Sequence record: PZ445444.1 | Source: a phage | DNA: 64,000 nucleotides | Direction: 5' to 3' (one strand) | Part shown: in pieces, positions 3,809 through 61,555 of the stretch | How the letters are laid out: every line of letters begins with the position of its first letter | Position numbering within the stretch: position 1 is the stretch's first letter | Notes under the pieces: model-generated | Told to the model about the DNA's origin: nothing | The model's database searches: none | Seen by the model: only the letters and a program-made list of their open reading frames with translations | Program-made: the position numbers and the translations under genes

Positions 3809-4134
3809 CAGAGATCATCATTTCAACTGCAGGGTATGTGTTCCTGACAATCATTGCACTGACCATTCTGGTTGTGGTATATGGAATTGTTATTCTCCCT
3901 ATTCTTGAGACAATTAGTTTGTGTCGGTGTTGGAGAAAGGCTTACGGTCCACAGCCGTGGAAGGACTGGCCCCACCTTGTGCACATAGCGTTCTCTTATG
4001 CTTATGATCACGCCAGCAGTGCATGCATAACCGGGTATCACGCCCACAACTGGAGCTGGGAAGGGTTGAGGAAATGGAATGTTACAAAGACCATACCTCT
4101 GCGCATGTACAAACCTAAAAACAAAGACAGCTGA
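3805..4134 (+). CDS. hypothetical membrane protein
   Basis: 109-aa ORF, AGGGG RBS; hydrophobic segment VFLTIIALTILVVVYGIVILPIL. Confidence 0.5.
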   Translation: MTEIIISTAGYVFLTIIALTILVVVYGIVILPILETISLCRCWRKAYGPQPWKDWPHLVHIAFSYAYDHASSACITGYHAHNWSWEGLRKWNVTKTIPLRMYKPKNKDS

Positions 4135-4445
4135 TACTTGAAAATTTCTGGCATATCAAGTGTAAGGAGGATTTCTAAAATGGATTTCCTCCTTTTGATA
4201 TTTCACCGGGCTAGATATTTTAAAATTCTTAGAAAATCAGAAAATGGATCGAAAACTAAAATGGATTTTTCAGAGCAGGCACGACGAGATGAACCACTCA
4301 TCCTATCGTCTGCACCATATTCCAGACCACCATTACAGATTTCCCGCACATGCTCACATCCTTCTACTAGAACTTCCCCCACTTACCCTTGACCTTTTAT
4401 AGTAATAATCCAACCACTACCTTGAAGTTGTGGCGCAGCTTTCCA

Positions 4446-4640
4446 AGTACTCGATCTGTTTTTCGTTTCAAAGATTGAATTTTCTGAAAATTTTTCTCGA
4501 TAAATTTCTCAGTACTCGATCTGTTTTTCGTTTTCTGAATCGGATTTTCTGGAAATCGTTCCGGCTCTCGACCTGAAATTTTTGGGGACGAAATCGATTT
4601 TTCGTTTTCAGAAATGGATTTTTAAAATTTCTATATGGGA
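4446..4640. repeat. degenerate tandem direct repeats (about 65-bp unit, roughly 3 copies)
   Basis: CAGTACTCGATCTGTTTTTCGTTT occurs at 4446 and 4511; recurring TTTTCGTTTTC and GATTTTCTGGAAA-like motifs. Confidence 0.6.
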
Positions 4641-4736
4641 ATATTTTAGTGGATACTATTTTATAGGAAATTGTTACGGAGGGTAATTAGCGTGCTAATT
4701 AAATTTATTAAATGCGAGGAGTTCTCATTTAGAATT

Positions 4737-4950
4737 TTGAATGATAATCATTCTCGTTTGCAGAATAACGGGCAGGCCCGGTGATTGTCTCCCGGCCCCT
4801 ACTGCCCCGGCTTGTTATTATAGTAACACACAGGACAAAGAAAGCAAGAAGTTTTTGCATAAATTTTTAGACGATAATGATAATCGTTCTCATTTCATGC
4901 AGCGCCCATCCCCGGTGGTTGTCTCCCCCGTCACCGGTGCCTGCCGTCCT
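4737..4950. repeat. two diverged ~75-bp direct repeats, each starting with a Fur-box-like sequence and ending in a GC-rich hairpin
   Basis: aATGATAATCATTcTC near 4740 and GATAATGATAATCgTTcTC at 4873-4891 (17/19 to GATAATGATAATCATTATC), each followed by CCGGTG(A/G)TTGTCTCCC. Confidence 0.5.
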
Positions 4951-5157
4951 TTCGATAGGTATATTTTGCCACCTAGCGGGGCCGCTGTCAACACTTTTCA
5001 AAAAAAAAAAAAAATTTCTAACCTGATGCGCTGACCGCTGCAACCTGGCGGGGCCAGCCTGGCAGGGCCTAACTGACCAGGTAGGAGAGAATGAAGGCTT
5101 GCAAACCTGGTGGGCCTATGCTATAGGATAGATAACAATTGAAGAGGAGGTACAAAA

Positions 5158-5334
5158 ATGGAAGGTAATATGATCCCCCTGGAAAATGTAGCTATTAATG
5201 ACGCTGAGGCTATCGCCCTGGTTGAAAAGGCTATGGCGGGAGCGTTGGAACATAAAGAAGAGTACGAAAAAATGATGGTTAACCTGGCAGGGGCGGCGGC
5301 TGGAGAATTCTACCCAAAAAATAATTTTAACTAA
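5158..5334 (+). CDS. hypothetical small protein
   Basis: 58-aa ORF below the ORF-track cut-off; strong GAGGAGG RBS. Confidence 0.4.
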   Translation: MEGNMIPLENVAINDAEAIALVEKAMAGALEHKEEYEKMMVNLAGAAAGEFYPKNNFN

Positions 5335-13853: not shown

Positions 13854-14065
13854 TCCTTATAAACTACAAAACAGGGCTTGCAATGGTCCTGTTTTTTGTT
13901 ATACTTGTTTCACGGCAGGCACCTGGTGACGGGGGGAGACAATCACCGGGTGTGCCTGCTATATAAAAACTATAAAAACCGTTGACATCTGCCAGGTGGT
14001 GGGGTAGCATTTATCTCGAAGGGGGCAAAAGCGCCCACACAACAACCGGAAGAGAGGAAAACGCC

Positions 14066-14338
14066 ATGTTAAGCTGGATTAACCAAGAAGTTGAATCACG
14101 TTTCAATGCTATTTGGGATCTCATCGAAAAAGAGGACGGAACATCAAGCCCTTATCTCAATAATCTTGAATTCCATTTCGTGGAAGCGATGAACGCAGAA
14201 CATGATCACGAAGGTGGTGCGGATGAATTCGCTAAAGGATATGGCTTCAACAATGCCAACGAAATGATCGAGGCGGTTGTACTCCAGGCTGAGGAAGATT
14301 ATCAATTAAAAACGCTTGAATTCTGCCGCCGTAAGTAA
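14066..14338 (+). CDS. hypothetical acidic protein
   Basis: 90 aa from ATG with AGAGGAAAAC leader, preferred over track start 13982. Confidence 0.55.
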   Translation: MLSWINQEVESRFNAIWDLIEKEDGTSSPYLNNLEFHFVEAMNAEHDHEGGADEFAKGYGFNNANEMIEAVVLQAEEDYQLKTLEFCRRK

Positions 14339-15275: not shown

Positions 15276-15879
15276 CTGCTCTTCTCCTACCATAAACGGC
15301 CCTACCTGGCAAGTGGAATAATTGACTAGCCATCAATCCCACATACTGTACAAATATACATTGAAAATAACTATTGCATAATTTTTCATTGTGTGGTAGC
15401 AGGGCCATTTTTACCCGTTTTCTCTCCCAAAAGTGCACGTAATGCCGCTATTGCACAAATTTTAACCTGATGCACATCTCCAATATCTTGTCAACAACTA
15501 AAAATCTTTATAAGTCATACACTTACACAGCATCGAAAGCGTGTTCTACGCGAAAAATAGAGTATAACTATAGCCGCCAGATCTCAGAATTCACGTACGC
15601 ACGCCATTCTATAGCCTGCAAAGTATTTATTCCAACCACAGAATAAAGGAATAGTCAATACCTGCATAAAATAATTATTCGTGTAAACTGCATAACATAA
15701 ATCAGCTCAGGTGTCAACATTTTTCGTAAACAGCCCGAAATTATCACGATGAGTTATCATAAACAGAGAAATCTTTAGTCGTCTAATGTTTACTGTACAT
15801 TACTATACTGACTGGAATCATTAGATGACTAAGAGAAAGATAAGAAATAATTAATAATGTAATTGTTTTACCTGTAACA

Positions 15880-16145
15880 ATAAGGCAACTATGCAAACGA
15901 ATGGCATGGCGCGACGGAGTCGCGACATAATATAAAAGCAGTAACCATCACCCCCGTGATAGTTTGTCTGCAAACTATTAATCAGATCATAGTTGCCTTG
16001 TATTTAGTTAATCATGACATAACAAGCAAGGCAACTATAGATCTTATAATAGTTGCCCTGCTTTTATATTATGTCATGCTAATTATAATCAGTGCGATTA
16101 TTGTCATGTATAATTATTGTCATGCAAACGAATGGCATGGCTGAT
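15880..16145. repeat. cluster of direct and inverted repeats
   Basis: GCAAACGAATGGCATGGC at about 15893 and 16125; CAAGGCAACTAT with inverted ATAGTTGCCTTG copies; ATTGTCATG repeated. Confidence 0.55.
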
Positions 16146-16153
16146 TATCGGTG

Positions 16154-16239
16154 TGTAAACAGTCAATCATGTAAATGGTTAGCATGTGAACAATCAGGAA
16201 TGTAAACAATCCAGTGTGTAAACTAATAGGTGTGTAAAA
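16154..16239 (+). repeat. iteron array: six TGT(A/G)AA(C/T/A) heptamers at a regular 15-16 bp spacing
   Basis: heptamers start at 16154, 16170, 16185, 16201, 16217, 16233. Confidence 0.65.
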
Positions 16240-17693
16240 GTGTCATGTTGTGTCAGTTAGGTCACATTATGTCAGACAAGTTTTTCTCCTCTTTGTCAAG
16301 TGCTGCATGAAAAATTTACAATCTTGTATGGTAGCATTTTTGCGGCCCTGTTTACATTCAGGAGTGTATGTATAATCCTTGGTGTGTGGGCGTTTAGACG
16401 TCTAGACGGTCAGAAGTCTGCAGGTCAATATCTAATCTATTGGCTGCTAACTATATCCCCCACAAATAATAAGAAATATAATTGTTATGTGCGTAAACAG
16501 TAACCCATGTTATCAATCCCTGTATGTATCGCCAGTGGTGCGCATAATGGGTATTATGTTAAATTGCCCGTAATGATAACTATTCTCACAATGATAGGTA
16601 TTCTCATTCACTCCCACAAGATAGGTTGCAAATGTTGTGCCATTGTGTGAACGGCCTCACCTATTAATTTGCCTCACTGCCTCGATATTTGAGAATTGTT
16701 ATAAGAATGAGAATGATTCCCATTTCGTCCGCCTAGCAGCACTCCTGTAGGACAAGCACAAAATCGTGGCATAGCTGGACCTGTTCAGATATTTCTGGCT
16801 GGCTCTTCAGGTCTGTGTGGGAAAAGCCAACCCCCTCCGGCGGCGGGGAGGGTGTCAATTAAAAAATTTACGGGGTATATGAAGCGCTCTTCAGGTAAGG
16901 CATGTACTATGGGATGAAACCCTCTTCGGGCAATGATATTTGTGGGTGTGATATTTGCTGGAAAGCCAGATATGACGGGACTCCCGGCGGGGCAGGGGTA
17001 GTACAGACAGGGAAAATATGGGGATGTAGTTGGGTGAATTGATCGGGCAGGTAGAGTATGGAATATGTTACAAGTATGTTAAATATGGAGGGTGAATATC
17101 TGCAGGATTTGTGTGTAAAATCAAAGACTTAAGTAGTGTTGTGGTATTTTCTATAAATAATTCAAGTTTAATAGGTAATATTTGTCTCTATCCACTTTGT
17201 GTGGTAAACAAATTCAAATGAGATTGGTTTACAAGTGTATACATAATATACAAATTAAAGATACAAGAAACCCCCCTCCCCCTTCGGCTACCATTCACCT
17301 TTTCCTCTGACTGGTACTTAAACACTTATTCAGACTCTTCAGGTTATCACCCATATACCATATGGCAGTGACTGGTGTCCTCCGGCCCCTCTTTCGTCAC
17401 CCGTCCGCTTCGCCATGCTAATGCCATAGCCAAATGTTCGGTTGTTCACCCTGTTCACTCAGGTGTATCTCCATACCCCTTCAAACCGAAGAGAACAGAA
17501 AACCCGAATTACTCGGTAAAAGAAAAGAGAAGAACTTAATTTTATCAGGATAGGCAAGAATGTCAAGGCATGACTGCTCACTAAACAAGCAAACAGTCAT
17601 GTGTGGGAGGTAAGTGATTGTGGTGGTAGGAAATTTAGTTGAAAGATGTGTTATAGGTGCTTCCAGCACTTTAGCCTGGCAGCTAATTGTGTG

Positions 17694-60742: not shown

Positions 60743-60817
60743 GCCCTGTTAGCTTAGTGGATAAAGCAGCGGCCTTCTAAGCCGTTGACACTGGTTCGAG
60801 TCCAGTACGGGGTGCCA
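60743..60817 (+). tRNA. tRNA-Arg (anticodon TCT)
   Basis: hand-folded cloverleaf: 7-bp acceptor GCCCTGT/ACGGGGT, D stem GCTT/AAGC, anticodon loop CTTCTAA, T loop TTCGAGT, encoded CCA. Confidence 0.75.
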
Positions 60818-60821
60818 AATT

Positions 60822-60908
60822 GGGGAGTTATCCCGTAGAGGTAGCGGTGTAGACTGTAAATCTATTGTCATTGCGACTCGGGTGGTTCGACTCCACCACT
60901 CCCCACCA
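60822..60908 (+). tRNA. tRNA-Tyr (anticodon GTA), long variable arm
   Basis: acceptor GGGGAGT/ACTCCCC, anticodon stem-loop GTAGA-CTGTAAA-TCTAT, T arm GGTGG-TTCGACT-CCACC, CCA. Confidence 0.7.
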
Positions 60909-61022
60909 AATTTATATTTTTAGATGCATAAATAATACAGATAATGGCATTGATATTTATCGTCGTTTATACTAGTCACTAACTGCTCGAAAATCAGTGT
61001 CATTATCAGTATAATTTATAAA

Positions 61023-61113
61023 GGAGGGTAGGGAGCAATGGTGCTCAAGCGGTCTTGAAAACCGTCCCGTTGAGGATGACTCGATGATGGTTCGATTCCA
61101 TTACTCTCCGCCA
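61023..61113 (+). tRNA. tRNA-Ser (anticodon TGA), type II
   Basis: acceptor GGAGGGT/ACTCTCC, anticodon loop CTTGAAA, long variable arm, T loop TTCGATT, CCA. Confidence 0.6.
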
Positions 61114-61211
61114 CATTGTTGACCTTGTAATTAAGCGAAAGCCGGAAGCAGAACCGGATTATCAAATGTTACAGTCGTCATCGCCGACTAGCAACATGGT
61201 CAACATACTGA

Positions 61212-61310
61212 GCTAGGTAAGCCCTTTGGCAAGGGCGAGGATTTTTAATCCTGAAAATAGACGAGGTAGTCGTTGAATACATAGGTGGTTCGATTCCATC
61301 ACCTAGCACC
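61212..61310 (+). tRNA. tRNA-like gene, atypical (99 nt; anticodon loop TTTTTAA suggests TTT/Lys; ~28-nt variable region)
   Basis: acceptor GCTAGGT/ACCTAGC, D arm GCCC-TTTGGCAA-GGGC, 4-bp anticodon stem AGGA/TCCT, T arm GGTGG-TTCGATT-CCATC; CCA not fully encoded. Confidence 0.4.
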
Positions 61311-61315
61311 TTTTT

Positions 61316-61391
61316 GCTGATGTAGCACAATCGGTAGTGCAATTGATTTGTAATCAATAGGTTGTAGGTTCAAGTCCTGCCATCAGCACCA
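61316..61391 (+). tRNA. tRNA-Thr (anticodon TGT)
   Basis: acceptor GCTGATG/CATCAGC, D stem GCAC/GTGC, anticodon arm ATTGA-TTTGTAA-TCAAT, T loop TTCAAGT, CCA. Confidence 0.8.
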
Positions 61392-61392
61392 A

Positions 61393-61467
61393 GGCCCTGT
61401 AGCTGGAAGGTTCAAGCAAGCGACTCATAATCGCCAGACGGTGGTTCAATTCCACCCAGGGCCACCA
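61393..61467 (+). tRNA. tRNA-Met (anticodon CAT; initiator, elongator or Ile-lysidine type not resolved)
   Basis: acceptor GGCCCTG/CAGGGCC, anticodon loop CTCATAA, T arm GGTGG-TTCAATT-CCACC, CCA. Confidence 0.75.
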
Positions 61468-61478
61468 AATAATAAATA

Positions 61479-61555
61479 CTCCGCGTAGCTCAGCTTGGTA
61501 GAGCGCCTGATTTGGGATCAGGAGGTCGAGTGTTCGAATCACTCCGTGGAGACCA
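61479..61555 (+). tRNA. tRNA-Pro (anticodon TGG)
   Basis: acceptor CTCCGCG/CGTGGAG, D arm TAGCTCAGCTTGGTAGAGC, anticodon arm CCTGA-TTTGGGA-TCAGG, T arm GAGTG-TTCGAAT-CACTC, CCA. Confidence 0.8.

Follow-up and report, generated by a model that had tools for sequence, protein, structure and literature searches.

A conserved non-coding module of predicted leftward promoters, hairpins and iterons in rV5-like phages, possibly a replication origin or replication-control region

What purpose might be served by a gap in which an rV5-like phage, within a long block of small plus-strand open reading frames (ORFs), encodes no convincing protein? The gap in question lies in the window, the 64,000-nucleotide (nt) stretch of phage record PZ445444.1 analyzed here, between the last convincing plus-strand ORF, which stops at 4134, and the next conserved ribosome-binding site (RBS) and ATG, at 5158. 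This gap proves to be a genuine non-coding module, strongly conserved among rV5-like phages: an island in which predicted leftward promoters, hairpin units with an invariant core, Fur-box-like palindromes, an A/T-rich stretch and tandem iterons follow one another in a fixed order. The reading that we favor, tentatively and from sequence comparison, is a cis-acting replication origin or replication-control region. Over the 1.1 kb around the island the window shared 99% identity with RudolfGeigy, an rV5-like Escherichia phage of the genus Vequintavirus, and about 120 further records matched at 80 to 97% identity. In RudolfGeigy the counterpart (80.7 to 81.8 kb) is part of a long run of small plus-strand ORFs, and the genes for primase/helicase and DNA polymerase are found about 8 kb upstream of it; the module of Pseudomonas phage PAK_P3 (Nankokuvirus) is likewise found downstream of primase/helicase and DNA polymerase genes, amid small ORFs.

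The orientation of the island is set by its predicted promoters. P2(-) (4963-4991, minus strand) consists of TTGACA, a 17-nt spacer and TG-CAAAAT, matching 10/12 positions with an extended -10, and P1(-) (4820-4847, minus strand) of TTGCTT (4847-4842), a 16-nt spacer and TGT-TACTAT (4825-4820), also with an extended -10. The latter was read from the sequence, as it fell under the threshold of the promoter scan (-35 = 3/6); its homologues in other genera match at 9-10/12. Among 18 copies of the core described below, 15 had a sigma70-type promoter (8-11/12) 25 to 37 nt upstream of the core and on its strand. Promoters on the opposite strand were weak and sporadic in the same copies: a rightward candidate overlapping the palindrome (TTGAAT-18-CAGAAT, 8/12) was found in 6 of the 18, and its -10 lacked the essential A2 in several lineages (CGGAAT, CTGAAT or GGGGAT in phiTE, Mydo and loci L011 and L013). 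The units are therefore read leftward, as promoter, hairpin and palindrome. The uninterrupted A run that had been placed at about 5000-5015 is indeed there, with exactly 15 A at 5000-5014. On the promoter strand it is a T15 tract, at a computed position of about -58 to -44 relative to P2(-), and fits an A/T-rich, UP-like upstream element of that promoter. The homopolymer itself is peculiar to the window phage, eight Vequintavirus relatives having A/T runs of 10 to 17 nt (A6T5, A10-A14); such variation agrees with a flexible UP-like tract and not with an element that is coding or of critical length.

Behind each promoter stands the conserved core, GAGACAAWCACC on the minus strand, followed after 5 nt by TGCC. 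A complete 137-kb genome has exactly three cores, two of them in the island. In hairpin unit A (4761-4810, minus strand), CTGCCCG and a U-rich tail, UUAUUCU, follow the invariant loop core GAGACAATCACC (4780-4791); hairpin unit B (4896-4962, minus strand) has the core GAGACAACCACC at 4914-4925. The third core, on the plus strand, belongs to a promoter-hairpin unit without iterons (13878-13960), in which TTGCAA (13878), a 16-nt spacer and TATACT (13900) precede GAGACAATCACC at 13936-13947; a second promoter, TTGACA-17-TAGCAT, lies downstream of it, followed by a gene (ATG at 14067). In the region around this third unit (13854-14066), the -35 falls within the terminator loop of the upstream gene (z = -3.6). 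When the 18 copies were folded as single sequences (mean z = -1.5), core positions 1 to 9 were mostly unpaired (probability 0.5 to 0.95), between an inner and an outer stem. The outer stem was 86% paired over nine alignable sequences, with one pair passing from AU to GC via GU, and the excess of G-U over A-C cells (7 vs 2) favors an RNA of the core's sense. The hairpin structure is plausible as a model; the conservation of the sequence is certain.

A search with Rfam, using gathering and E-value thresholds on the window and five related loci, returned nothing relevant: in the window only tRNAs reached the gathering score, and the best matches within the island had E = 0.16-5.7, well short of the cut-offs. 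No host origin of the core was found among 185,579 species genomes, which gave 48 matches in unrelated, mostly coding contexts, none of them homologous and none in E. coli, Salmonella or Klebsiella; this count agrees with the estimated chance number. T7-type primase-helicases start primers at sequences like 5'-TTGTC-3', and the template strand of the invariant loop contains this sequence, so that a primase start there can be speculated upon. The primase/helicase of rV5 has been described as related to those of podoviruses (PMC3606486). In loci L002-L006 (phiTE, phiWec179, Mydo, SSE121 and ChuuTotoro), a highly conserved block of about 100 nt (CGCCACCCCACGGCGAAAAGGCGGGGCTAAC...GGAAGGTGGATCGCCGG, near 1640-1760) replaces hairpin unit B behind a strong minus-strand promoter; it had no Rfam match, and RNAalifold gave it a structure with one compensatory pair (GC to AU) in a variable inner hairpin. 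The pseudo-ToxI RNA of phiTE belongs to another locus (106.7 kb) and not to the island.

Beyond the hairpins the leftward units reach the palindromes. Palindrome B (4873-4891) matches the Fur consensus GATAATGATAATCATTATC at 17/19 positions, as originally noted, and palindrome A (4737-4756) includes a second site, at 4737-4755, with 15/19 and the 7-1-7 core TGATAATCATTCTCG. Sites were judged by consensus matching only, and the chance expectation for three or fewer mismatches is 0.03 per window. Sites of 14-16/19 recur at the same place in all Vequintavirinae genera examined and in phiWec179, and phiTE, phiWec179, Mydo and SSE121 have overlapping pairs of at least 14/19 with a 6-bp shift; in the window the site shifted by 6 bp reaches only 13/19 by hand count. 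Overlapping sites with this shift are typical of footprinted E. coli Fur operators (PMC2189734). The palindromic sites and 6-bp-phased hexamer arrays thus resemble E. coli Fur boxes (GATAATGATAATCATTATC; 7-1-7 form TGATAATnATTATCA), but they lie downstream of strong promoters, not over them, and their right half-site is nearly always ATTCTCATT (ATTCTC), whereas ATTATC is optimal for Fur; so consistent a departure may indicate a binding protein other than Fur. The Pseudomonas versions of the module have no Fur-like box. Weighing the conserved 14-16/19 sites and the 6-bp-shifted pairs against the ATTCTC deviation and the absence from Pseudomonas, we consider binding by Fur plausible, an evenly balanced prospect, with another protein possible in its place.

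The likeness to Fur boxes is therefore real and conserved, but the arrangement is not the one first described, in which a box headed each of two diverged repeats of about 75 bp. The palindromes lie about 50 to 70 nt downstream of the strong leftward promoters and 3' of the hairpins; a Fur box over the unit's own promoter, as in RyhB-like RNAs, was not found at P1(-) or P2(-). Two diverged repeats are present, but they are about 135 bp apart (family D4, 20 nt with 90% identity at a spacing of 136 nt; family D5, 17 nt with 94% at 134 nt). Read on the plus strand, each Fur-like site is indeed followed by a GC-rich segment, with CCCGGTG(A/G)TTGTCTCC, that is capable of forming a hairpin (4761-4810 and 4896-4962).

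Beyond the leftward units lie the tandem repeats, which also proved real: three copies at 4437-4483, 4502-4548 and 4576-4622, spaced by 65 and 74 nt and 74 to 77% identical to the reference copy, a divergence too high for Tandem Repeats Finder to detect them. The three iteron units (4437-4640, plus strand; repeat families D1 and D2) run GTACTCGATC...TTTTTCG, with heads GTACTCGATC at 4447 and 4512 and a degenerate GCTCTCGACC at 4564, and the head GTACTCGATC is confined to the island within the whole 137-kb RudolfGeigy genome. Between the iterons and palindrome A lies an A/T-rich spacer (4641-4736, GC 0.28). The island thus has two traits of an iteron origin, at least three tandem direct repeats with a conserved head and an adjacent A/T-rich region. 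Homologous GGTACTCGAY...TTTT iterons were found in phiTE, SSE121, Mydo, ChuuTotoro, the metagenomic contig L010, Pseudomonas phage EM and PAK_P3. In the first four of these, the heads GGTACTCGATCG, GGTCTCGATCG and GGTTCTCGATCG, each followed by a T-run, are present in 3 to 6 copies.

Conservation within the genus, measured as mean pairwise identity in an alignment of nine Vequintavirus islands, follows this anatomy. It was 0.995 for palindrome A, 0.984 for hairpin B, 0.978 for palindrome B, 0.956 for hairpin A, 0.954 for P1(-) and 0.93 for the iterons; the left and right flanking genes reached 0.90 and 0.84, and the spacers and the A tract 0.63 to 0.73. At greater distance, BLAST matches in other genera (Certrevirus, Seunavirus, Mydovirus, Phapecoctavirus and Serratia and Klebsiella phages) kept only about 60 to 145 nt around the first palindrome and hairpin, at 71 to 88% identity. 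The same order of parts was found in every genus among the five loci read, and a pattern scan of IMG/VR revealed further copies in very different contigs. The order of promoter, hairpin, A/T-rich stretch and iterons holds for other Vequintavirinae genera and for the Pseudomonas genera Pakpunavirus and Nankokuvirus; contig L010, with the same arrangement, encodes a neighboring protein 51% identical to Pakpunavirus proteins, and the version in phage EM (Pakpunavirus) is common to 141 Pseudomonas phage records. In the window, phiTE, SSE121, ChuuTotoro, L010, phage EM and PAK_P3, an iteron-like (G/T)(T/A/G)(A/C/T)CT(C/G)GA(C/T), usually with a T-run next, stands 160 to 450 nt downstream of the core. 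The repeats of PAK_P3, GGTACTCGACAGATTTTCAC, come 210 to 280 nt after TTGACA-17-CATTCT and GAGACAAACACC, and locus L024 has two 74-bp tandem repeats behind its core. The element was also present in 16 or 17 "Campylobacter phage" records (host C. jejuni; e.g., MG065658), at 95 to 97% identity to the window phage, an E. coli Vequintavirus, and in one "Acinetobacter phage" record, all of which are probably mislabelled or contaminant assemblies.

This conservation is not that of a protein. Some records annotate small proteins in the gap (rV5 gp193 and gp194; RudolfGeigy bas52_0099-0101), and an ORF from 4741 (4741-5034; 92 to 109 codons) does stay open in 9 Vequintavirus, but only because the DNA there barely changes. 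It has no RBS, it starts within the palindrome, its substitutions fall at codon positions 1 and 2 and mostly change the amino acid, and its frame is shortened to 26 codons in SSE121 and to 7 in Mydo. The other candidates have lost their start codon or meet early stops, and the annotations conflict among records. No ORF in the gap showed a conserved frame with mainly synonymous change, and the description of the gap as non-coding stands; that it encodes the annotated proteins is barely credible.

Conserved linkage and spacing of promoter, hairpin, A/T-rich stretch and iterons amid varying neighbors is the pattern expected of a cis-acting replication element. From the observed anatomy and geometry we infer promoter activity, transcripts, protein binding and origin function, in the following manner. 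Rightward transcription from the upstream genes would halt at a terminator (4164-4205), and P2(-), with T15 as its upstream A/T element, and P1(-) would fire leftward, against the flanking genes, as tandem host-type promoters. Each leftward transcript would open with a GC-rich hairpin presenting the invariant loop GAGACAAWCACC, and would then cross a Fur-box-like palindrome and the A/T-rich stretch into the three GTACTCGATC iterons, to which a phage replication protein may bind. The transcripts would activate or prime DNA synthesis at the iterons, in the style of T4 oriF/oriG, ColE1 or lambda, and the palindromes could be operator or roadblock sites at which host Fur or a phage protein gates leftward transcription.

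Two kinds of origin stand nearest to this scheme, namely iteron origins activated by transcription and RNA-primed origins such as T4 oriF/oriG and ColE1. The island shares with lambda ori (pR transcription, leftward oop RNA) and with iteron plasmids the tandem direct repeats beside an A/T-rich stretch and, as predictions here, transcription that is aimed at the repeats or passes through them and a short leftward RNA opposed to the flanking genes; unlike them, it has no initiator gene overlapping or adjoining the repeats, and its iteron units are long (65 to 95 bp) with a short conserved head. With T4 oriF/oriG (promoter plus unwinding element) and ColE1 RNA II it has in common a promoter, a predicted structured, G-rich transcript and A/T-rich DNA, and the weak convergent promoter of some island lineages could yield, as ColE1 RNA I does, an antisense to the 5' hairpin. 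The invariance of the loop sequence is a point of difference, as those systems do not need it.

Several observations weigh against an origin. Cumulative GC and AT skew had no extreme at the module, the extremes tracking changes in gene orientation, although this is a weak test for phages. No known initiator gene adjoins the island, the neighbors being variable or of unknown function: a comparison of flanking proteins with Pfam and PHROGs found no initiator or regulator, only NADAR, an HNH endonuclease and unknowns among the genera. The -35 of P1(-) in the window (TTGCTT) is weak. Covariation in the hairpin was not significant, 261 of 500 shuffles reaching the observed score, and RNAalifold on a MAFFT alignment returned no consensus structure for it. 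No iteron of the GGTACTCGA type was found in phiWec179 (Phapecoctavirus), which keeps promoter, hairpin and palindromes but has different repeats. The third copy in the window and the copy at locus L017 have promoter and hairpin but no iterons and point the same way as the genes, and the hairpin unit must therefore have a function independent of the iterons. Finally, an origin could equally well lie in a second non-coding region (about 15650-17690), which has repeats and the same palindromes too. That region, larger than the island, lies at the junction of plus- and minus-strand blocks (RudolfGeigy 91.8-94.3 kb) and contains two Fur-like palindrome pairs (16574/16592 and 16690/16708, 18 bp apart, spanning 16574-16722), GATATTTG twice (16935-16957), TGTAAAC repeats (16150-16240) and ATAGTTGCC repeats (15990-16060); it may be the box marked "non-coding" in the rV5 genome paper (PMC3606486). 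That paper did not find the rV5 origin by skew analysis. In the literature searched on Vequintavirinae transcriptomes, origins and non-coding RNAs we found no description of the module, the hairpin motif or the Fur-like sites.

Other functions can be read into the same parts. If the hairpin units acted alone, P1(-), P2(-) and the plus-strand copy at 13.9 kb would each make a regulatory RNA of about 50 to 80 nt whose loop pairs with a target, either a cis-antisense rightward transcript or one in trans; the RNAs would then switch, by convergent promoters or as antisense, between two blocks of genes, and transcription factors would bind at the iterons and palindromes. Promoter, hairpin and a moderately U-rich tail are all present, the invariant 12-nt loop resembles a seed, iteron-less copies exist, 6 of 18 copies have a weak rightward promoter opposed to P1(-), and antisense and small RNAs are known to abound in related Pseudomonas phages (PMC4933390, PMC10914365). 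The promoter of its own that an Hfq-type small RNA would have is there on the minus strand, by consensus match only. However, most copies have no canonical terminator after them: no minus-strand terminator was called, and the U-rich tails (UUAUUCU in copy A, GUCUUUUGAGCUUUU in L024, GCGCUUUUC in PAK_P3) follow imperfect hairpins. The unit belongs to no Rfam family and its core has no homologue in host chromosomes, a search of the window with the loop returned the three core copies themselves and no complementary site elsewhere, and a deep, position-conserved linkage to iterons is unexpected for an RNA acting in trans. The RNA sequencing-based annotation of PAK_P3 has no RNA at the homologous spot; the ONT-cappable-seq study notes that its method overlooks RNAs shorter than about 80 nt. 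Lambda oop, P22 sar, P4 CI RNA and the PAK_P3 non-coding RNA candidates are comparable as short, promoter-proximal hairpin RNAs (here predicted) in early-region gaps; the island differs in having no classical terminator and no identified target. We regard free-standing RNAs as possible but doubtful; the small RNA pair once proposed is in itself plausible, but it would be made from the minus strand and without an obvious Fur-controlled promoter. An antitermination element, in which a promoter-proximal RNA hairpin, like lambda nut or HK022 put, modifies host RNA polymerase for terminator read-through, would account for the constrained position of the element at +20 to +45 from the predicted start, for just three copies per genome, each behind a promoter, and for a loop common to Pseudomonas and Enterobacterales phages, as would fit a conserved host target. 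We nonetheless consider it very unlikely, as both island copies face non-coding DNA and run against the genes, no boxA-like sequence or match to known elements was found, and the hairpin registers vary among lineages.

The iron-responsive model proposed at first, in which Fur would repress a rightward early promoter from the palindromes as its operators (TTGAAT-18-CAGAAT at 4738-4767, and TTGCAT-18-GATAAT at 4856-4885) and the downstream block would be expressed only under iron limitation, draws on the 17/19 and 15/19 matches, on the recurrence of 14-16/19 sites, often as 6-bp-shifted pairs (PMC2189734), in all Vequintavirinae genera examined, and on the position of palindrome A exactly in the spacer of the candidate promoter. 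A promoter beside the downstream gene (5098-5126) is moreover deleted in several relatives, which implies that this gene needs another one. The Fur-like sites are indeed conserved, but the rightward promoter that they overlap is weak (8/12) and sporadic (6 of 18 copies) and absent from distant copies, the half-site deviates to ATTCTC, Pseudomonas modules have no boxes, and the iterons, the strong leftward promoters and the conserved hairpin loop would be left unexplained; iron control of this kind appears quite unlikely. Highly improbable is a pac site bound by the small terminase, given that the terminase gene is about 80 kb from the island, that GATC (the Dam site) is not enriched in it, and that phiTE shares the module with PaP1-like Pakpunaviruses, which are reported to have fixed terminal repeats and hence to package in another way than phiTE. 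In its favor are repeated motifs and A-tracts like those of known pac sites, and the circular permutation and transduction of phiTE (PMC3475682). Of all these readings, the replication origin or control region remains the one that we prefer.

The borders of the island carry further features. On the left, the intrinsic terminator that ends the upstream genes (4164-4205, plus strand; AAGGAGGA...TCCTCCTT, then TTGATATTT, read directly from the sequence) folds at -17.6 kcal/mol (z = -2.33). Two GATATTT(C/T) motifs (4197-4221, plus strand) have 2 to 4 counterparts at the left edge of the island in other genera, and a block of repeated AAAATGGAT(C/T) motifs (4228-4272, plus strand; family D3) is 100% identical in the 9 Vequintavirus. 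The variable spacer that follows (4273-4440, plus strand; mean pairwise identity 0.73) is C-rich and G-poor, with a skew down to -0.7; 120 to 170 nt of it are nearly G-free on the plus strand, other genera also have C-rich stretches there, and Rho might load at this spacer onto rightward transcripts. On the right is a conserved block (5016-5057, identity 0.96) with TGCAACCTGGCGGGGCC, which repeats 4967-4983 (family D6). The immediate flanking genes vary between genera. The first ORF right of the island (5158-5334) has a perfectly conserved RBS and ATG, and in 5 of 9 related phages its reading frame is interrupted, mostly by changes in the length of a C-run just after codon 7; either it is no real gene, or it is phase-variable, or the breaks are homopolymer sequencing errors. 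Other genera have a small minus-strand ORF to the right of the island (L002 1776-2207, L003 1817-2083, L004 1826-2011, L006 1782-1991), encoding DUF7170 in Mydo and without counterpart in Vequintavirus. Elsewhere in the window, a cluster of six tRNA genes lies at 60743-61552 on the plus strand.

Should the palindromes be bound by Fur, the host regulator might be built into a phage module for control of replication or transcription, a conjecture from the sequence that we hold unlikely. In one version, palindrome-bound Fur would gate the leftward transcripts, and hence phage DNA synthesis, by iron supply; in another, replicating boxes would titrate Fur and de-repress host iron uptake, feeding the iron-dependent ribonucleotide reductases of the phage. 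A strong, unexplained rise in the expression of host operons for siderophores and heme uptake (the Fur regulon) has been reported in infections by the distantly related Pseudomonas phage PAK_P4 (PMC5563952). A tie between this phenotype and the module was not supported, the island of phage EM, the one Pakpunavirus examined, having no Fur-like box.

The rV5-like, phAPEC8-like and PAK_P1-like myoviruses are widely used in therapy and biocontrol. That one compact module, with a fixed geometry of promoter, hairpin and iterons, is found in phages of Escherichia, Salmonella, Klebsiella, Pectobacterium, Serratia and Pseudomonas makes it a concrete target for origin mapping and for a search for the iteron-binding protein. 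It may also be of use in engineering, for replicons, copy-number control and the choice of safe deletion sites, and it would allow a specific connection of phage development with the iron status of the host to be tested.

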